From the NCBI RefSeq assembly GCF_029227855.1, contig NZ_CP074356.1: a DNA stretch of 64,000 bases. One strand, 5' to 3'. A model generated the notes under the pieces. It did no database searches and was not told where the DNA came from. It saw only the letters and a program-made list of their open reading frames with translations. Below are positions 2,109-40,105 of the stretch, piece after piece. The DNA is from Escherichia coli. GTDB lineage: Bacteria > Pseudomonadota > Gammaproteobacteria > Enterobacterales > Enterobacteriaceae. Positions within the stretch are counted from its first letter, which is position 1; each line of letters opens with the position of its first letter. The position numbers and the translations under genes were made by a program.

Positions 2109-2686
2109 GAGTTCCCCGCGCCAGCGGGGATAAACCGATTTTGGTGGCGGGGGTGACTGGGGGAATACTGAGTTCCCCGCGCCAGCGGGGATAAACCGTC
2201 CGAGCGCGTAATAGCGCGCGCCCGGAAACAGAGTTCCCCGCGCCAGCGGGGATAAACCGCGGCACCAGGGCTGAAAGGCGGGGCCGCTAAAGAGTTCCCC
2301 GCGCCAGCGGGGATAAACCGGCCAGCGGCGCTGAGTACGACGACCTGATTAAGAGTTCCCCGCGCCAGCGGGGATAAACCGTCAATACAACAGCAATGCT
2401 GGAGCTGGAAAAAGAGTTCCCCGCGCCAGCGGGGATAAACCGGTACCGTTGAGCAATGGTGGGTAAATGGTGCTGAGTTCCCCGCGCCAGCGGGGATAAA
2501 CCGATTTAGATACGGCACACAGGAATGCGCTGGATGAGTTCCCCGCGCCAGCGGGGATAAACCGCATGGGAGTCCAGATTACAAATTCCAGAATGGGAGT
2601 TCCCCGCGCCAGCGGGGATAAACCGCGTTTAGCTCCGCAATGTTGGATATCACTGATGAGTTCCCCGCACCAGCGGGAATAAACCA
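2109..2686 (+). CRISPR. Type I-E CRISPR array (orphan, queE-ygcE intergenic), 9 spacers
   Basis: Nine 29-bp repeats GAGTTCCCCGCGCCAGCGGGGATAAACCG at a 61-bp period (2109, 2170 ... 2597) plus a degenerate terminal repeat at 2658-2686; nine unique 32-bp spacers; leader on the queE side sets orientation. Confidence 0.95.
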
Positions 2687-19174: not shown

Positions 19175-19279
19175 GCGAGCAGCATTCCTGATTTTAAACG
19201 TGAACGCCGCTGGAAGAATTATCAGGTATAGAATGGCGTTGGGTGCTTGAGGCTGTCTGGCGTTAAGCATTCGCGAGGT

Positions 19280-19343
19280 TCCAGATGGACAAAAGCCCCA
19301 GGCGATATTTCTATCAACCTGAGGCCAGCGTTCGAACCTAAGC
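19280..19343 (-). ncRNA. Candidate Sok-type antisense RNA (sokX-like) opposite the hokX leader
   Basis: Minus-strand promoter-like elements TTGCCT (complement of 19374-19379), 17-bp spacer, TAACAT (complement of 19351-19356) overlapping the hokX SD/ATG, as in hok/sok loci; a weak hairpin plus U-run near 19280. Extent is approximate. Confidence 0.3.
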
Positions 19344-19382
19344 AATTCGAATGTTAGTCTCTTCTTTGCAGGGAGGCAAGAC

Positions 19383-19535
19383 ATGCTGACAAAATATGCC
19401 CTTGTGGCAATCATCGTACTGTGTTGTACAGTACTGGGATTCACGCTGATGGTAGGCGACTCGTTGTGTGAGTTGAGTATCAGAGAACGTGGTATGGAGT
19501 TTAAGGCAGTTCTCGCTTACGAATCGAAGAAGTAG
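19383..19535 (+). CDS. hokX: Hok-family small membrane toxin (type I toxin-antitoxin)
   Basis: 50-codon [53 protein letters not shown] with GGGAGG RBS 6 nt upstream; hydrophobic helix plus conserved Hok/Gef C-terminal pattern; below the ORF-track size cut-off. Confidence 0.75.
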
Positions 19536-19729
19536 CCACCACGCGGGGGTAAAACCCCGCGTATTGAATTGTGATGGTTTGGTCTCCTGCACCCTTTTTT
19601 AATTTATATTGTTTATGTGAATATTATGCCTATGTTTATTATTCATATATATTACGGATGAAAATTATTTGATTATTCATAATGTAAATATTTTATTGAA
19701 CGATATATATCACAGATAATTTTTAATAT

Positions 19730-22360
19730 ATGCGTAAATATCCTTTAAGTTTACTGAAGGATAAAAATATTGTGACTTTTTTTGATTTCTGGGGAAAAAC
19801 CCGACGCGGCGAGAAAGACGGGGGCGACGACTATCACCTTCTTTGCTGGCATTCGCTGGATGTAGCCGCGATGGGCTATTTAATGGTTAAAAGCAATTGC
19901 TTCGGGCTGACTGACTATTTTCGTCAACTAGGTTTCGCTGATACGGAGCAGGCAGCACAATTTTTCGCCTGGCTATTGTGCTGGCACGATACTGGAAAAT
20001 TTGCCCGCTCTTTTCAGCAACTTTACCTGCACCCACAACTCAAGGTTCCGGAAGGCGCAAGAAAGAATTACGAAAAGATCTCTCATTCAACGCTGGGCTA
20101 CTGGCTGTGGCATCATTATTTAAGTGAATACGAAGAATTGCTTCCTTCATCTTCACTCTCTCCGCGCAAACTTAAACGGGTGATGGAGATGTGGATGCCC
20201 ATGACTACCGGGCATCATGGTCGGCCCCCTGACCGTATTGATGAACTGGATAATTTTCTGCCTGAAGACAAAGCTGCCGCACGAGATTTTCTCCTTGAAA
20301 TCAAGGTACTGTTTCCGCTCATCGAGATCCCCGCATTCTGGGATGATGACGAGGGCATTGAACTTTTAAAACAACTTTCCTGGTATATCTCTGCAACCGT
20401 CGTACTCGCAGACTGGACGGGATCGTCAACGCGGTTTTTTCCACGCGTTGCACAGGCAATGGATATTAAAGATTACTGGCAGAAGGCTTTAGTTCAGGCT
20501 CAAAACGCCTTAACCGTCTTTCCTCCAAAAGCACAAACCGCGCCTTTCACCGGAATTAATACGCTGTTTCCTTTTATTGAGCACCCGACACCGTTACAGC
20601 AAAAGGTGCTGGATCTGGATATCAGCCAGCCTGGGCCACAGTTATTTATTCTGGAGGATGTGACTGGCGCAGGTAAAACAGAAGCGGCGCTTATCCTGGC
20701 CCACAGGTTGATGGCTGCGGGGAAAGCACAGGGTTTGTTTTTTGGCCTGCCAACAATGGCAACGGCCAATGCCATGTACGATCGGCTGGTAAAAACCTGG
20801 CTTGCTTTCTATTCGCCAGAATCCCGCCCCAGCCTGGTGCTGGCACACAGTGCCCGCACATTAATGGACCGCTTTAATGAATCACTCTGGTCCGGTGATT
20901 TAGTCGGGTCAGAAGAACCGGATGAACAAGCGTTCAGTCAGGGATGTGCGGCCTGGTTTGCCGACAGTAACAAGAAGGCGTTGCTGGCTGAAATTGGCGT
21001 CGGCACGCTGGATCAGGCGATGATGGCGGTGATGCCGTTTAAACATAATAATCTGCGGCTTCTGGGACTGAGTAACAAAATCCTGCTGGCTGATGAGATC
21101 CATGCCTGTGACGCTTACATGTCGTGCATTCTTGAAGGATTGATTGAGCGGCAGGCGCGTGGAGGAAACAGCGTTATTTTGCTTTCTGCCACGTTATCTC
21201 AACAGCAGCGCGACAAACTCGTTGCTGCCTTTGCGCGTGGTGCAGAGGGCCAGCAAGAAGCTCCGTTCCTGGAAAAGGATGATTACCCCTGGCTGACGCA
21301 CGTTACGAAATCGGATGTGCATTCACACCGGGTAGCAGCGCGCAAAGACGTTGAGCGTAGCGTGAGCGTGGGTTGGCTTCATAGCGAACAAGAGTGTATT
21401 GCGCGTATCGAATCGGCGGTAAGTCAGGGGAAATGCATCGCCTGGATCCGGAATTCTGTCGATGATGCTATTAAAGTTTATCGTCAGTTACTTGCCCGCG
21501 GCGTCATTCCTGCTTCCAGCCTTTCTCTTTTTCATAGCCGCTTTGCTTTTAGCGATCGCCAGCGAATTGAAACGGAAACGCTGGCACGCTTTGGTAAAGA
21601 AGATAGCTCACAGCGTGCCGGAAAAGTCCTCATTTGTACTCAGGTCTTAGAGTCGAGCGTTGATTGCGATATGGACGAAATGATTTCCGACCTTGCCCCC
21701 ATTGATTTGCTGATCCAGCGAGCGGGGCGATTACAGCGACATATCCGCGATATTAATGGTCAGTTAAAGCGTGACGGAAAAGACGAGCGTTCCCCTCCTG
21801 AATTGCTGATTCTGGCCCCCGTCTGGGACGACGCTCCAGGTGACGAATGGTTCGGCAGTGCCATGCGTAACAGTGCATATGTCTATCCCGATCATGGACG
21901 AATCTGGCTGACGCAGCGTGTACTGCGTGAGCAAGGCGCTATTCAAATGCCACACGCAGCCCGCCTTCTTATTGAATCAGTCTACGGTGAGGACGTGGTA
22001 ATGCCGGAAGGATTTGCCCGCAGCGAGCAGGAACAAGTGGGCAAATATTACTGCGATCGCGCAATGGCTAAAAAGTTTGTGCTGAACTTTAGGCCCGGCT
22101 ATGCCGCCAATATCAACGATTACCTCCCGGAAAAACTGTCGACACGTCTGGCTGAGGAGTCTGTTTCCCTGTGGCTGGCTACCTGTATTGCCGGTGTGGT
22201 GAAGCCTTATGCCAACGGTGCTCACGCATGGGAAATGAGCGTTGTCAGAGTGCGTCGAAGCTGGTGGAAAAACATCGGGATGAGTTTTCTTTACTGGAAG
22301 GGGAAGCGTTCAGGCAGTGGTGCATTGAACAGCGGAAAGATCCGGAGATGGCAAACGTGA
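19730..22360 (+). CDS. cas3: Cas3 HD-nuclease/helicase (type I-E); 3' end apparently frameshifted, with the conserved C-terminus continuing in the +1 frame to 22428
   Basis: 876-aa ORF with HD region (LLCWHSLDVAAMGYL...), DExH helicase motifs (GAGKTEAAL, LLADEIHACD). The last ~36 codons are low-complexity and basic, while ORF 22171-22428 in another frame encodes a tail resembling the K-12 Cas3 C-terminus. An in-frame GTG at 19772 is an alternative start. Confidence 0.85.
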   Translation: MRKYPLSLLKDKNIVTFFDFWGKTRRGEKDGGDDYHLLCWHSLDVAAMGYLMVKSNCFGLTDYFRQLGFADTEQAAQFFAWLLCWHDTGKFARSFQQLYLHPQLKVPEGARKNYEKISHSTLGYWLWHHYLSEYEELLPSSSLSPRKLKRVMEMWMPMTTGHHGRPPDRIDELDNFLPEDKAAARDFLLEIKVLFPLIEIPAFWDDDEGIELLKQLSWYISATVVLADWTGSSTRFFPRVAQAMDIKDYWQKALVQAQNALTVFPPKAQTAPFTGINTLFPFIEHPTPLQQKVLDLDISQPGPQLFILEDVTGAGKTEAALILAHRLMAAGKAQGLFFGLPTMATANAMYDRLVKTWLAFYSPESRPSLVLAHSARTLMDRFNESLWSGDLVGSEEPDEQAFSQGCAAWFADSNKKALLAEIGVGTLDQAMMAVMPFKHNNLRLLGLSNKILLADEIHACDAYMSCILEGLIERQARGGNSVILLSATLSQQQRDKLVAAFARGAEGQQEAPFLEKDDYPWLTHVTKSDVHSHRVAARKDVERSVSVGWLHSEQECIARIESAVSQGKCIAWIRNSVDDAIKVYRQLLARGVIPASSLSLFHSRFAFSDRQRIETETLARFGKEDSSQRAGKVLICTQVLESSVDCDMDEMISDLAPIDLLIQRAGRLQRHIRDINGQLKRDGKDERSPPELLILAPVWDDAPGDEWFGSAMRNSAYVYPDHGRIWLTQRVLREQGAIQMPHAARLLIESVYGEDVVMPEGFARSEQEQVGKYYCDRAMAKKFVLNFRPGYAANINDYLPEKLSTRLAEESVSLWLATCIAGVVKPYANGAHAWEMSVVRVRRSWWKNIGMSFLYWKGKRSGSGALNSGKIRRWQT

Positions 22361-22525
22361 TTTTAGTTACCGATGACGAAAGTTGCGGGTATTCGGCTAT
22401 GGAAGGATTGACTGGCAAGGTTGGTTGAGATGCCTGCGACAGGGCTCTCTGAATAGTTGATACACCGAAAAGGATGGAATGATGGACAACCGACCTGGGA
22501 TGGTCTTTTTTACGAGAGGATGCGT

Positions 22526-24088
22526 ATGAACTCGTTTTCACTTCTGACAACCCCGTGGTTGCCCGTTCGTTATAAAGACGGAACGACAGGCAAACTGGCG
22601 CCTGTCGATCTGGCGGATGAAAATGTTGTCGATATTGCTGCGCCACGGGCAGATCTCCAGGGAGCGGCATGGCAGTTTTTGCTGGGGCTACTACAAACCA
22701 GCTTTGCGCCAAAAGATCATCGTCGTTGGGATGATATCTGGGAAGACGGACTGGAATCTGAAAAGCTACGGGAAGCATTGCTGTCCTTAGAACACGCTTT
22801 CCAGTTTGGGCCAGATTCCCCTTCATTTATGCAGGATTTCGAGGCGCTCACAGGAGATAAAGTTCAGGTCGCTTCGCTACTGCCTGAGATTCCCGGCGCT
22901 CAAACAACGAAGTTTAATAAAGACCACTTTATCAAGCGTGGTGTAACGGAATACCTGTGCCCACATTGTTCTGCGTTAGCTCTGTTCTCCCTACAGTTAA
23001 ATGCGCCGTCAGGTGGTAAAGGCTACCGCACCGGTTTACGCGGCGGTGGGCCGATGACCACTCTGATTGAATTACAGGAATATCAGGGCAATCAACAAAC
23101 GCCCTTGTGGCGCAAACTGTGGCTCAATGTGATGCCGCAGGACGAAGCCGACTTACCGCTACCCAAAAAATTTGACGATCTGGTTTTCCCCTGGCTTGGC
23201 CCGACGCGTACCAGCGAACTGGCCGGTGCGGTGGTAACCGATGATCAGGTTAATAAACTCCAGGCGTACTGGGGAATGCCGCGGCGTATTCGTATTGATT
23301 TTAATACCACGACAGTCGGCAACTGCGATATTTGCGGCGAGCAGAACGACGCGCTCCTGAGCCTGATGACGACCAAAAATTACGGCGCGAATTATGCCAT
23401 GTGGCAGCATCCCTTAACGCCTTACCGTGTACCCCTTAAAGAGGGCGGCGAGTTTTACTCGGTCAAACCACAACCAGGCGGTTTAATCTGGCGCGACTGG
23501 TTAGGCCTTATCGAAACGGGTAAATCAGAAAACAATACGGAACTTCCCGCGCTGGTGGTGAAACTCTTTAATGCCAGCAGTCTCAAGCAGGCAAAAGTGG
23601 GCCTATGGGGATTTGGTTATGATTTTGACAACATGAAAGCGCGCTGTTGGTACGAACACCATTTCCCGCTACTGCTCAATAAAAAAGAAGGCCAGATACC
23701 GAAGCTGCGGCTGGCTGCGCAAACGGCTTCACGGATTCTGAGTCTGTTACGGAGTGCATTGAAAGAAGCATGGTTCTCCGATCCAAAAGGTGCAAGGGGT
23801 GATTTCAGTTTTGTGGATATCGACTTCTGGAACAAAACTCAGCATCGCTTCCTGAGGTTAGTGCGCCAAATTGAAGAAGGTCAGGATGCGGATGAATTAC
23901 TCGGCAAATGGCAAAAGGAAATTTGGTTATTCGCGCGTCAGGATTTTGACGAGCGTGTATTCACTAATCCTTATGAGCCCGTTGATTTGAAACGCGTCAT
24001 GACCGCGCGCAAGAAATATTTTACAACATCGGCGGAGAAGCAAAGTGCTAAAGCCGCCAGGGAGAAAAAGCAGGAGGCTGCTGAATGA
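22526..24088 (+). CDS. casA: Cascade large subunit Cse1 (CasA)
   Basis: Track ORF 22457-24088; start placed at the ATG 6 nt after a GAGAGG RBS (MNSFSLLTTPWLPVRYKDG..., 520 aa), matching the N-terminal pattern of K-12 CasA. Confidence 0.85.
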   Translation: MNSFSLLTTPWLPVRYKDGTTGKLAPVDLADENVVDIAAPRADLQGAAWQFLLGLLQTSFAPKDHRRWDDIWEDGLESEKLREALLSLEHAFQFGPDSPSFMQDFEALTGDKVQVASLLPEIPGAQTTKFNKDHFIKRGVTEYLCPHCSALALFSLQLNAPSGGKGYRTGLRGGGPMTTLIELQEYQGNQQTPLWRKLWLNVMPQDEADLPLPKKFDDLVFPWLGPTRTSELAGAVVTDDQVNKLQAYWGMPRRIRIDFNTTTVGNCDICGEQNDALLSLMTTKNYGANYAMWQHPLTPYRVPLKEGGEFYSVKPQPGGLIWRDWLGLIETGKSENNTELPALVVKLFNASSLKQAKVGLWGFGYDFDNMKARCWYEHHFPLLLNKKEGQIPKLRLAAQTASRILSLLRSALKEAWFSDPKGARGDFSFVDIDFWNKTQHRFLRLVRQIEEGQDADELLGKWQKEIWLFARQDFDERVFTNPYEPVDLKRVMTARKKYFTTSAEKQSAKAAREKKQEAAE

Positions 24089-24621
24089 GTATTGTAAAAG
24101 AGGAGCACAAAGCCACGCTGCGTAAATGGCACGAAGAGTTGCAGGAAAAACGCGGCAATCGTGCCAGTCTGCGGCGTAGCACAACGGTTAATGATGTTTG
24201 TCTGTCAGAAGGGTTTCGTTCTCTGCTGATGCAGACCCACACGTTGTGGAAAATTGAATCACAGGAGTGGCGTTTTACCGCACTGGCGCTGGTTGCCGCC
24301 GTTGCCGCCAATGTAAAAGCCATTGATGAACGGCAGCCTTTTGCCGCGCAGTTGGCGGCGGTAATGTCTGAGGGGCGTTTTACTCGCCTGTCGGCAGTCA
24401 AAACGCCGGATGAATTACTGCGCCAGTTACGTCGCGCGGTCAAATTATTAAATGGTTCCGTCAATCTTATCTCTTTGGCAGACGATATTTTCCGCTGGTG
24501 CCAGGAGAGCGACGATCTGCTCAATCATCACCGCCGCCAGCAGCGGCCAACAGAATTTATCCGTATCCGCTGGGCGCTGGAATATTACCAGGCTGGCGAC
24601 GCCGATAACGAACAAAATTAA
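24085..24621 (+). CDS. casB: Cascade small subunit Cse2 (CasB)
   Basis: 178-aa ORF MSIVKEEHKATLRKWHEELQEKRGNRASLRR...; overlaps the casA stop; position in the cascade operon. Confidence 0.85.
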   Translation: MSIVKEEHKATLRKWHEELQEKRGNRASLRRSTTVNDVCLSEGFRSLLMQTHTLWKIESQEWRFTALALVAAVAANVKAIDERQPFAAQLAAVMSEGRFTRLSAVKTPDELLRQLRRAVKLLNGSVNLISLADDIFRWCQESDDLLNHHRRQQRPTEFIRIRWALEYYQAGDADNEQN

Positions 24622-24635
24622 TAAAGGACTATCTC

Positions 24636-25691
24636 ATGACGACATTTATTCAGCTTCATTTGTTAACCGCTTACCCTGCTGCCAACCTTAACCGTGATGA
24701 CACCGGTGCGCCAAAAACTGTGGTACTGGGTGGAGCAACGCGTCTGCGCGTTTCCTCACAAAGTCTGAAACGTGCGTGGCGCACTTCTGCACTTTTTGAA
24801 CAGGCACTGGCGGGCCATATTGGTATTCGCAGTGGGCGTATTGCGCGTGAGGCGGCAACTATCCTGATTGAGAAAGGCATCGAAGAGAAAAAAGCCATCG
24901 AATGGGCGGCAAAAATTGCGGATTATCTTGGGAAAGCTAAAAACGACAAAAAACCAAAAGATCCGCTCACTAACGCCGAAACTGAACAGCTAGTCCATAT
25001 CAGCCCGGCAGAATTTGACGCCGTAAAAGCGCTGGCCCATCAACTGGCCGAAGAAAAGCGCGCGCCAAAAGAGGAAGATCTCGCTTTGTTACGTAAAGAT
25101 CGCATGGCGGTAGATATCGCTATGTTTGGTCGTATGCTGGCGAATAAACCCGAATTTAATGTTGAAGCCGCCTGCCAGGTCGCGCATGCATTTGGTGTCA
25201 GTGAAACGATTGTCGAAGATGATTTTTTCACCGCCGTTGATGATTTGCGCCAGGCTTCTGAAGATGCCGGTGCCGGGCATCTTGGTGAAACCGGATTCGG
25301 TTCTGCGCTGTTCTACACCTATATCTGCATCGATAAAGATCTGCTGGTCGAAAACCTCGGCGGTGACGAAGCGTTAGCTAATCAGACCTTGCGCGCCTTT
25401 ACGGAAGCCGCACTTAAAGTCTCCCCAACCGGCAAACAGAACAGCTTTGCCAGCCGTGCCTACGCCTCCTGGGCGCTGGCAGAAAAAGGCACTGAACAAC
25501 CACGCTCTCTGGCGGCGGCTTTCTATGAACCCATTAATGGCACCCGGCAGTTAGATGTGGCGGTGCAGCGTATTACAACGCTTCGCGAAAATATGAATAC
25601 GGTCTATGAACAGAAGACCGAATGCGCAAGCTTTGACGTGATGAACAAACAGGGAAGCATGAAGGACGTGCTGGACTTTATCTGCGCGTAA
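24636..25691 (+). CDS. casC: Cascade backbone subunit Cas7e (CasC)
   Basis: 351-aa ORF MTTFIQLHLLTAYPAANLNRDDTGAPKTVVLGGATRLRVSSQSLKRAWR... Confidence 0.9.
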   Translation: MTTFIQLHLLTAYPAANLNRDDTGAPKTVVLGGATRLRVSSQSLKRAWRTSALFEQALAGHIGIRSGRIAREAATILIEKGIEEKKAIEWAAKIADYLGKAKNDKKPKDPLTNAETEQLVHISPAEFDAVKALAHQLAEEKRAPKEEDLALLRKDRMAVDIAMFGRMLANKPEFNVEAACQVAHAFGVSETIVEDDFFTAVDDLRQASEDAGAGHLGETGFGSALFYTYICIDKDLLVENLGGDEALANQTLRAFTEAALKVSPTGKQNSFASRAYASWALAEKGTEQPRSLAAAFYEPINGTRQLDVAVQRITTLRENMNTVYEQKTECASFDVMNKQGSMKDVLDFICA

Positions 25692-25701
25692 GGGGCGGCT
25701 A

Positions 25702-26448
25702 ATGAGCCAATATTTGATTTTTCAGCTTCATGGGCCAATGGCATCCTGGGGCGTCGATGCCCCCGGCGAAGTGCGTCATACCCATGAACTGCCTTCGCGC
25801 TCAGCATTGCTGGGGCTGCTGGCTGCCGGGGTAGGGATTCGGCGTGATGATACCGAACGATTAAACGTGTTTAACCGCCACTATTCACTGGTGGTTTGCG
25901 CCAGCCGTAACCCGCGCTGGGCACGGGATTATCACACAATCCAGATGCCAAAAGAGGTGCGTAAAGCGCGTTATTTCAGCCGTCGCGAAGAGTTGAGCGA
26001 CCCTGATCTTCTGAGCGCGATTATCTCCCGGCGCGACTACTACACCGACGCCTGGTGGATGGTGGCGGTGGCAACAACAGCCGATGCGCCTTACAGCCTC
26101 GAACAGTTGCAGGGCGGTTTACGCCATCCAGTTTTTCCTCTTTATCTGGGGCGAAAAAGTCATCCGCTGGCGTTACCACTTGCGCCGTTACTGCTCGAAG
26201 GCAACGCGTCTGATGTCTTACGTAACGCATACCAACAGTATCAGGATAGTTTCCGCGAACTGAAAGTCTCACTCCCGAAACTTCAGGATGAATGCTGGTG
26301 GGAAGGGGAACACGACGGCCTGGTCGCGAGCAAAATATTACGTCGCCGGGATGTTCCTTTAAATCGTCAGCAGTGGCTGTTTGGGGAACGCACCATCAAT
26401 CAGGGGCCGTGGCTCAGCAAGGAGGAACCATGTACCTCTCAAGAATAA
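25702..26448 (+). CDS. casD: Cascade subunit Cas5e (CasD)
   Basis: 248-aa ORF MSQYLIFQLHGPMASWGVDAPGEVRHT...; same N-terminal pattern as K-12 CasD (MRSYLILRLAGPMQAWG). Confidence 0.9.
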   Translation: MSQYLIFQLHGPMASWGVDAPGEVRHTHELPSRSALLGLLAAGVGIRRDDTERLNVFNRHYSLVVCASRNPRWARDYHTIQMPKEVRKARYFSRREELSDPDLLSAIISRRDYYTDAWWMVAVATTADAPYSLEQLQGGLRHPVFPLYLGRKSHPLALPLAPLLLEGNASDVLRNAYQQYQDSFRELKVSLPKLQDECWWEGEHDGLVASKILRRRDVPLNRQQWLFGERTINQGPWLSKEEPCTSQE

Positions 26449-27076
26449 CCTTACATACCGGCCAGCTTTCGCCTGCGCAGTTGCTGCATCTGGTGGATCG
26501 CGGTGAATATGTAATGCATCAGTGGCTGTGGGATCTTTTTCCTGGCGGCAAAGAAAGGCAATTTCTTTATCGTCGGGAAGAACTCCTGGGGGCGTTTCGC
26601 TTTTTTGTCCTGTCGCAGGAACGCCCGGCGGAAAATGATATTTTCACCATCGAATGCCGACCATTTGCGCCAGAGTTGCGTACCGGACAATCCCTTTGTT
26701 TCAACCTGCGGGCGAATCCAACAATTTGTAAAGCGGGCAAACGCCACGACTTGCTGATGGAGGCGAAACGGCAGGTGAGGGGGCAGGTGGAAGGAAGTGA
26801 TGTCTGGTTGCATCAACAACAGGCGGCGCTGGACTGGCTGGCAGCGCAGGGGGAAAGAAGCGGTTTTACACTACTGGATACCTCGGTCGATGCCTACCGA
26901 CAACAGCAACTGCGGCGGGAAAACTCCCGGCAACTGATCCAGTTCAGTAGCGTGGATTATACGGGGATGCTTACGGTCACCGATCCTGGGTTATTTCTGC
27001 AACGTCTGAGCCAGGGGTATGGCAAAAGCCGCGCGTTCGGCTGTGGTCTGATGCTGATCAAACCCGGAGCAGAGGC

Positions 27077-27080
<4 letters not shown>
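26430..27080 (+). CDS. casE: crRNA endoribonuclease Cas6e (CasE)
   Basis: Track ORF 26292-27080; start at ATG after AGGAGG RBS (MYLSRITLHTGQLSPAQLLHLVDRGEYVMHQWLWDLFPG..., 216 aa); C-terminal GCGLM-type motif. Confidence 0.85.
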
Positions 27081-28290
<1,210 letters not shown>

Positions 28291-28386
28291 GTTATCTGTT
28301 CTTTAAAAATAAGGAAATGTTTTAATTTAGTTGGTAGATTGTTGATGCGGAATAAATTTGTTTAAAAACAGTTATGTATGCTTAGT
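28291..28386 (+). promoter_or_regulatory. CRISPR leader of array 2 (AT-rich, GTTGGTAGATTGT box)
   Basis: 96-bp AT-rich spacer between the cas2 stop and the first repeat; box TTTAGTTGGTAGATTGTTGATG shared with the array 1 leader. Confidence 0.5.
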
Positions 28387-29025
28387 GTGTTCCCCGCGCC
28401 AGCGGGGATAAATCGAGATCACCGTGTTAAATAACCGATTGAACGCCGTGTTCCCCGCGCCAGCGGGGATAAATCGGCCAGGCCAATACAGTTGGCGAAG
28501 AAGCGAAGGTGTTCCCCGCGCCAGCGGGGATAAATCGACACCGGGCTGGATAAAAAAACTATCGGGAAAGTGTTCCCCGCGCCAGCGGGGATAAATCGCC
28601 GTTTGATAGCTGTTCACGCTGGCTGATGCCGTGTTCCCCGCGCCAGCGGGGATAAACCGCGCAGTTCGCTACCGAGCGTGGTTTGCTGGTCGTGTTCCCC
28701 GCGCCAGCGGGGATAAACCGGCGCACAGCGACGCGAAATCAACGAAAATTTAGTGTTCCCCGCGCCAGCGGGGATAAACCGATTGCCAGATACTGTGTAT
28801 ATCCACCGACTAAGTGTTCCCCGCGCCAGCGGGGATAAACCGCAGGGAAACCGTTCGTACTTATCGACCTCAACGTGTTCCCCGCGCCAGCGGGGATAAA
28901 CCGAAGGGGACGGCTACGGGACGCCGCCTATTGATGTGTTCCCCGCGTCAGCGGGGATAAACCGGACGCACTGGATGCGATGATGGACATCACTTGGAGT
29001 TCCCCGCCCCTGCGGTAGAACTCCC
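28387..29025 (+). CRISPR. Type I-E CRISPR array (cas-associated), 10 spacers
   Basis: Ten 29-bp repeats at a 61-bp period (28387 ... 28936) plus a degenerate terminal repeat at 28997-29025; ten unique 32-bp spacers. Repeats 1-4 end AAATCG, repeats 5-10 end AAACCG. Confidence 0.95.
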
Positions 29026-39112: not shown

Positions 39113-40105
39113 ATGAGTCAGAATACGCTGAAAGTTCATGATTTAAATGAAGATGCGGAATTTGATGAGAACGGAGTTGAGGTTTTTGACGAAAAGGCCT
39201 TAGTAGAAGAGGAACCCAGTGATAACGATTTGGCCGAAGAGGAACTGTTATCGCAGGGAGCCACACAGCGTGTGCTGGACGCGACTCAGCTTTACCTTGG
39301 TGAGATTGGTTATTCACCACTGTTAACGGCCGAAGAAGAAGTTTATTTTGCGCGTCGCGCACTGCGTGGAGATGTTGCCTCCCGCCGCCGGATGATCGAG
39401 AGTAACTTGCGTCTGGTGGTAAAAATTGCCCGCCGTTATGGCAATCGTGGTCTGGCGTTGCTGGACCTGATCGAAGAGGGCAACCTGGGGCTGATCCGCG
39501 CGGTAGAGAAGTTTGACCCGGAACGTGGTTTCCGCTTCTCAACATACGCAACCTGGTGGATTCGCCAGACGATCGAACGGGCGATTATGAACCAAACCCG
39601 TACTATTCGTTTGCCTATTCACATCGTAAAGGAGCTGAACGTTTACCTGCGAACCGCACGCGAGTTGTCCCATAAACTGGACCACGAACCAAGTGCGGAA
39701 GAGATCGCAGAGCAACTGGATAAGCCAGTTGATGACGTCAGCCGTATGCTTCGTCTTAACGAGCGCATTACCTCGGTAGACACCCCGCTGGGTGGTGATT
39801 CCGAAAAAGCGTTGCTGGACATCCTGGCCGATGAAAAAGAGAACGGTCCGGAAGATACCACGCAAGATGACGATATGAAGCAGAGCATCGTCAAATGGCT
39901 GTTCGAGCTGAACGCCAAACAGCGTGAAGTACTGGCACGTCGATTCGGTTTGCTGGGGTACGAAGCGGCAACACTGGAAGATGTAGGTCGTGAAATTGGC
40001 CTCACCCGTGAACGTGTTCGCCAGATTCAGGTTGAAGGCCTGCGCCGTTTGCGCGAAATCCTGCAAACGCAGGGGCTGAATATCGAAGCGCTGTTCCGCG
40101 AGTAA
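39113..40105 (+). CDS. rpoS: RNA polymerase sigma factor RpoS (sigma-38), apparently intact
   Basis: Track ORF 39077-40105; start at [40 protein letters not shown]... (330 aa); sigma-70 family regions 2-4; no internal stop. Confidence 0.95.

Follow-up and report, generated by a model that had tools for sequence, protein, structure and literature searches.

The C-terminal domain (CTD) of Cas3 is seated above the two RecA domains, where it closes the ssDNA channel and makes contact with Cascade, and Cas3 from T. fusca binds Cascade more weakly when this domain is absent (reviewed in PMC5965380). The role of the domain is defined by the structures of T. fusca Cas3 (PDB 4QQW-4QQZ and 6C66 chain G) and Thermobaculum terrenum Cas3 (4Q2C). 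Two cas gene sets occur in E. coli, and the protein from the K-12 set (YgcB, NP_417241.1, 888 aa) has the architecture of an HD nuclease, an SF2 helicase and a CTD. Frameshifted cas3 genes have been reported in natural E. coli, namely in the O26:H11-related strains DEC9A, DEC9E and DEC10D, where a premature stop interrupts cas3 within an otherwise complete type I-E locus and where the choice between mutation and error also arises (PMC5592225). The cas3 gene described here resembles these examples in these respects, and differs from them in that it occurs in another strain and is apparently interrupted at another position.

The window (the whole 64,000-nucleotide stretch of DNA that was analysed) is part of an E. 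coli chromosome and has the gene order cysJIH, a hok-like gene, cas3, casABCDE, cas1, cas2, a CRISPR array and iap. A type I-E Cascade operon (cse1, cse2, cas7e, cas5e, cas6e), cas1e, cas2e and an array with 29-nt repeats adjoin cas3. A megablast search with positions 21900-22560 found this cas3 variant, which is a type I-E gene distinct from that of K-12, in 2,451 of 5,426 complete E. coli genomes. The nearest genome is that of JNEC-KY178, a clinical isolate from Japan, from whose annotation the coordinates of the other cas genes were carried over. All of these genes are on the plus strand, as is cas3: casA (cse1) occupies 22526-24088, casB 24085-24621, cas7e 24636-25691, cas5e 25702-26448, cas6e 26430-27080, cas1e 27077-28000 and cas2e 27997-28290. 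Each is intact, and there are no differences from JNEC-KY178 over 22268-28386. An earlier note on this DNA, which was made from the sequence alone, had supposed that the adaptation genes were undamaged, and cas1, cas2 and every Cascade gene are indeed base-for-base identical to those of this intact relative. Cse1 is the Cascade subunit on which Cas3 docks. Repeat parsing delimited the cas-adjacent array at 28387-28964, with its leader at the cas2 side, and a second type I-E array at 2109-2686; both lie on the plus strand and comprise 10 repeats and 9 spacers. A scan of 19200-22700 for promoters and terminators returned hits that were no more numerous than in shuffled sequence.

The called cas3 open reading frame (ORF) extends from 19730 to 22360 and encodes 876 amino acids, the last of which read SWWKNIGMSFLYWKGKRSGSGALNSGKIRRWQT. 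A second ORF (22171-22428) overlaps its 3′ end in another frame and terminates with KLVEKHRDEFSLLEGEAFRQWCIEQRKDPEMANVILVTDDESCGYSAMEGLTGKVG (also given as KHRDEFSLLEGEAFRQWCIEQRKDPEMANVILVTDDESCGYSAMEGLTGKVG). Both ORFs had been described in the earlier note and were reproduced by ORF listing and translation. Alignment of the DNA with two intact orthologues, from JNEC-KY178 and from strain 7/2, contains a sole gap: the window has five A residues at 22268-22272, whereas both orthologues have six. Likewise, in every one of the matches listed for the megablast of 21900-22560, the record contains 662 bases and the query 661. The cas3 gene in the window therefore carries a single-nucleotide deletion in an A6 tract, which shifts the reading frame. 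The earlier note had placed the switch between frames around 22245-22265, next to an A5 run, and had proposed as its cause either a real mutation or an indel from sequencing or assembly. The alignment confirms both the frameshift in this neighbourhood and a one-base indel as its origin, but the indel lies within the run itself, such that the proposed switch position was 5-20 bases too far upstream.

The consequences for the encoded protein can be read directly from the two frames. Codons 1-847 (19730-22270), which span the HD nuclease, both RecA domains (RecA1 and RecA2), the linker and the start of the CTD, are common to the product of the window and intact Cas3. The A6 tract encodes Lys847-Lys848 in the orthologues. 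With one A missing, 29 out-of-frame residues (NIGMSFLYWKGKRSGSGALNSGKIRRWQT) take the place of the last 52, and this tail together with its TGA codon (22358-22360) spans 22271-22360 as defined by translation and prefix comparison. The authentic 3′ end of the gene is displaced into the second frame at 22273-22428, where codons 849-899 (HRDEFSLLEGEAFRQWCIEQRKDPEMANVILVTDDESCGYSAMEGLTGKVG; 22273-22425) are followed by a TGA codon at 22426-22428, and it is identical to that of the orthologues. On the 3′ side of the A-run, this second frame coincides with the intact 899-aa cas3 genes at the DNA level and uses the same stop codon. Because of this DNA identity and the orthologous stop, the likeness of the second frame to cas3 is not due to chance.

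An intact cas3 gene of 899 codons is annotated in both JNEC-KY178 and 7/2. The JNEC-KY178 protein (WP_471724390.1, 899 aa) is identical to the window product over residues 1-847 except for D721E, and the 7/2 protein (WP_001521158.1), which is also 899 aa in length, belongs to the same non-K-12 type I-E variant. Both genes share with that of the window the location between cysH/hok and casA, the start codon, the downstream DNA and the stop codon. They differ from it by one additional A in the A6 tract and by the last 52 residues, which are replaced by 29 out-of-frame residues in the window.

The frameshift had originally been suspected from a likeness between the second frame and the C-terminus of K-12 Cas3. 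The earlier note had given the K-12 tail correctly, and at the level of the motif the likeness is borne out: its Y-x4-G-M motif (ITYTGDEGM) lands on Y888-x4-G893-L894 once the K-12 protein is added to the family alignment. However, the likeness does not extend to a pairwise BLASTP alignment, in which the last ~100 residues remain unaligned, and as evidence it was weaker than the earlier note had suggested. K-12 Cas3 matches the protein described here in chromosomal position and in domain architecture, but it is only 29% identical overall and belongs to the other of the two E. coli cas gene sets. What decides in favour of the frameshift is the comparison with nearly identical orthologues of this cas3 variant, and not the likeness to K-12.

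Several types of sequence collection were used to determine how widespread the A5 allele is. An exact match to the 91 bases centred on the A-run occurs in none of the 2,441 genomes found by megablast among the 5,426 complete E. coli genomes, and the best matches to this query reach 98.9%, which corresponds to the one gap. AAAAAA is present in all 14 of the metagenome contigs that match GTGCGTCGAAGCTGGTGG-N{5,6}-CATCGGGATGAGTTTTC. Exact-sequence look-up in a collection of 15 billion proteins returned no record of the truncated 876-aa protein, and also no record of the repaired 899-aa protein with D721. Given that no genome matches exactly, that all 14 contigs have A6 and that no record of the protein was retrieved, the deletion is private to this sequence. 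Intact Cas3 orthologues ending in the same basic tail would have spoken against a frameshift, as the earlier note had recognized; both the 876-aa product and the DNA allele are absent from the collections searched by exact sequence.

A private deletion could have arisen in the strain or in its assembly, and the comparison with JNEC-KY178 bears on this choice. The two sequences were compared position by position over the whole window, with structural differences accounted for. Over ~62 kb they are distinguished by four single-nucleotide polymorphisms (SNPs; at 21892, 29778, 31484 and 49922), one IS1 element, two spacer units and one indel. The IS1 element is located between nlpD and rpoS in JNEC-KY178 and is absent from the window, and each of the two CRISPR arrays in the window is one repeat-spacer unit shorter than its counterpart. 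A search of phage and plasmid collections with the extra JNEC-KY178 spacer yielded no protospacer. The A-run deletion is the sole indel in the ~62 kb outside the CRISPR arrays, even though the window contains 53 homopolymers of six bases, eight of seven bases and two of nine bases, and all of the others agree with JNEC-KY178. Because of this, the window does not carry a general signature of homopolymer error. Furthermore, the SNPs, the IS1 element and the two spacer units mark the window and JNEC-KY178 as distinct lineages, and a single genuine indel between such lineages would be no surprise. Of the five small differences, two lie in cas3, namely D721E in JNEC-KY178 and the deletion of A in the window, a distribution that fits relaxed constraint on the gene. 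Expression of cas3 in E. coli is silenced by H-NS and the gene is weakly selected, and therefore inactivating mutations are tolerated.

We favour the interpretation that cas3 has undergone a genuine, strain-private loss-of-function frameshift, to which we assign a probability of roughly 0.6. We infer, accordingly, that the deletion would be present in the cell and not merely in the assembly. The strongest competitor, tentative but serious, is that the A6 tract and an intact cas3 of 899 codons are truly present in the strain, and that one A was dropped from the consensus sequence. One-base homopolymer deletions are the commonest class of residual error, and the reading of A6 as A5 is typical of long-read and older pyrosequencing platforms. 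A one-off error would likewise be expected to yield an allele such as this one, which none of the 2,441 complete genomes or 14 metagenome contigs shares, in a cas3 gene that otherwise matches an intact relative save for one codon. Errors were also a possibility that the authors who described comparable cas3 frameshifts in draft genomes of E. coli were unable to discount (PMC5592225). Against an error stands the observation that this is the only indel in ~62 kb, and that the longer, more error-prone runs (eight of 7 nt and two of 9 nt) agree with the relative. The assembly is thus locally accurate, and an isolated miscall in a six-base run would be rare. In addition, real inactivating mutations are tolerated in cas3.

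Whether a real deletion would inactivate the protein depends on the domains that are retained and on the segment that is lost. The HD nuclease is present (Pfam Cas3_HD PF18019, residues 21-237, E 5e-32), and both the intact protein and the truncated one reach 88.8 bits with the NCBIfam model TIGR01596 (cas3_HD), for which the cut-off is 43.45. The SF2 helicase core is also present, with a score of 218 bits against a cut-off of 102 for TIGR01587 (cas3_core) and a Pfam Cas3-like_C_2 match at residues 566-672. Walker A residues G313, G315, K316 and T317, as well as D455, E456 and H458 of the DExH motif, are invariant in 129 homologues. What the called ORF does not encode is a complete C-terminal accessory domain, because residues 848-899 are lost and would be recovered only if one A were put back at 22268-22272.

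Residues 790-899 were not covered by sequence searches of PDB and Pfam, and the lost segment was assessed instead from a family alignment and an AlphaFold model built on it. The model of the repaired or orthologous protein has a pLDDT of 91.9 and a pTM of 0.93, with pLDDT values of 80-94 over residues 840-899. Its overall fold is that of solved type I-E Cas3 proteins, as evaluated by Foldseek against 4QQZ (TM 0.77, E 5e-48), and the crystal structures of T. fusca Cas3 are matched at TM 0.76-0.77. The T. fusca and T. terrenum structures as a group share this full-length fold (TM 0.74-0.77, E about 1e-45 to 1e-48), and T. fusca Cas3 in 6C66 chain G gives a TMq of 0.68 (E 1.7e-40). At the sequence level, the T. 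fusca and T. terrenum proteins are recognized with E-values of 1e-64 to 1e-79, but they are only 25-27% identical and the alignment stops at ~residue 788. The modelled CTD spans ~810 to 899, and the truncation would remove the end of a helix (843-852), a second helix (858-868), a strand (876-879) and the terminal strands, in which Y888 and G893 are located. The lost segment thus corresponds in the model to about half of the secondary-structure elements of this compact domain.

A truncated Cas3 that still functions, because its extreme C-terminus is dispensable, is an unlikely outcome of a real deletion, although some observations are in its favour. The deletion leaves the HD and helicase cores unaltered, and both pass the NCBIfam cut-offs described above. 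In addition, a phmmer search of 1.84 billion representative proteins returned thousands of homologues, most of whose local alignments end near residue 845, and therefore most of the tail is variable in sequence. However, this variability does not extend to the whole segment. Conservation was scored on 129 full-length homologues with 34-69% identity, in which Y888 is found in 128, G893 in all 129 and L894 in 96, and the first two residues, which are essentially invariant, align with K-12 Cas3 as well. The loss of half of the CTD elements in the model, and the weaker Cascade binding of T. fusca Cas3 from which the CTD has been removed (PMC5965380), also argue against a dispensable tail. Moreover, the 29-residue basic nonsense tail is likely to destabilize what is left of the domain.

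A mechanism for the loss-of-function frameshift can be proposed from these observations. Replication slippage in the A6 tract at Lys847-Lys848 would have dropped one A, such that translation departs from the frame past Lys847 and appends 29 unrelated, basic residues before it ends 68 nt short of the normal stop. The predicted product retains the HD nuclease and both RecA domains but not the last 52 residues of the CTD, which in type I-E Cas3 caps the ssDNA channel and helps to dock the protein on Cse1 of Cascade. Truncated Cas3 would then be expected to be misfolded, unstable or not recruited to the R-loop, and interference and primed adaptation would be abolished. It is thus probable that the truncation disables Cas3 and, through it, both interference and priming. 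crRNA production and processing, Cascade assembly and naive adaptation by Cas1-Cas2 should persist, since casA through cas2 are identical to those of the intact relative. The premature TGA (22358-22360) sits 68 nt 5′ of the normal stop, which itself (22426-22428) ends 98 nt before the start of casA at 22526. No polar effect on the downstream genes is expected.

Two further proposals would turn the A-run into a regulatory device, and we consider both to be very improbable. In the first, A6 would be a low-frequency contingency switch whose A5 state turns off Cas3, and hence interference and priming, while spacer storage is kept. Such a switch could, for example, allow a self- or plasmid-targeting spacer to be tolerated, and truncated Cas3 might keep some Cascade-independent activity. 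That the indel lies in a homopolymer is the sole observation in its support; neither A5 nor any other length variant was found in other genomes, which speaks against a contingency locus. The second and least credible proposal, that full-length Cas3 is made through a programmed or phase-variable recoding event, was rejected: although a -1 ribosomal slip on G_AAA_AAC, or one A added by RNA polymerase, restores the orthologous frame, all orthologues examined are single-frame genes with A6 and share no conserved recoding site, G_AAA_AAC is not a canonical X_XXY_YYZ heptamer, five A residues are well below the roughly eight to nine or more that efficient transcriptional slippage needs, and the fold of the downstream 88 nt is unremarkable (z = -1.06; 34 of 200 shuffled sequences fold equally well).

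The lesion, the deletion of one base from a homopolymer in a defence gene that is dispensable, is commonplace: whether it is a pseudogenising mutation private to the strain or an error in the consensus, it is of a known kind and brings no new biology. The type I-E system of this strain should either be annotated with a cas3 pseudogene or have this base verified and corrected. With a real deletion, the strain would probably lack CRISPR interference and primed adaptation even when silencing by H-NS is lifted. This matters only for work on native CRISPR function with this isolate, or where immunity is inferred from its spacers. The gene would then offer one more example of the known picture in which E. 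coli type I-E systems are weakly selected and decay by small mutations.

Across approximately 62 kb, the window and JNEC-KY178, the closest complete E. coli genome, differ by only four single-nucleotide polymorphisms (SNPs) and one indel. Two of these small differences fall within the 2.7-kb cas3 gene, at window positions 21892 and 22268-22272. The former is a non-synonymous SNP (D721E) for which JNEC-KY178 carries the derived state, and the latter is the frameshift in the window. The clustering of two differences in cas3 suggests relaxed constraint on this gene, or it is a coincidence.

Two other open reading frames (ORFs) are located near cas3. Between cysH and cas3, the window carries a plus-strand ORF for a 50-aa Hok/Gef-family toxin (19383-19535), whereas the sokX small RNA is the sole annotation at this position in K-12. 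A 193-aa ORF on the minus strand (22245-22826) runs antisense to the 3ʹ end of cas3, the cas3-casA intergenic region and the 5ʹ end of casA, and is probably a chance ORF.

Elsewhere, JNEC-KY178 (whose coordinates are given on the sequences designated L003 and L004) carries an IS1A insertion just upstream of the rpoS start codon, at the nlpD-rpoS junction (L004 3905-4602). With its 9-bp target duplication counted in, the insertion measures 777 bp. It is absent from the corresponding junction in the window (about 39113-39121), and therefore the nlpD-rpoS arrangement is uninterrupted there. A short hypothetical gene adjoining ygcG on the minus strand (window about 819-960; L003 3465-3606) is annotated as frameshifted in JNEC-KY178, and the window sequence is identical at this location, so the pseudogene is common to both strains.

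Both CRISPR arrays differ in spacer content. The second array (window 2109-2686; L003 4755-5393) lacks in the window an internal, leader-distal repeat-spacer unit containing spacer CGCCAGTCTGAGGTTTTCCGGTCATACATCGT, which was likely deleted by recombination between repeats. In the cas-adjacent array (window 28387-28964; L003 31095-31733), array comparison revealed that JNEC-KY178 carries an extra leader-proximal spacer, TCCGTATGGGTCGCCCGGGTGAAATGTTTATC, that is absent from the window. This spacer was not found in any other complete E. coli genome among 5,426 searched, and no match was identified in phage and plasmid collections. Its carrier has an intact cas3 gene and is otherwise nearly identical to the window. 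The JNEC-KY178 sister lineage seems to have acquired TCCGTATGGGTCGCCCGGGTGAAATGTTTATC naturally and very recently, an event that is uncommon for E. coli.
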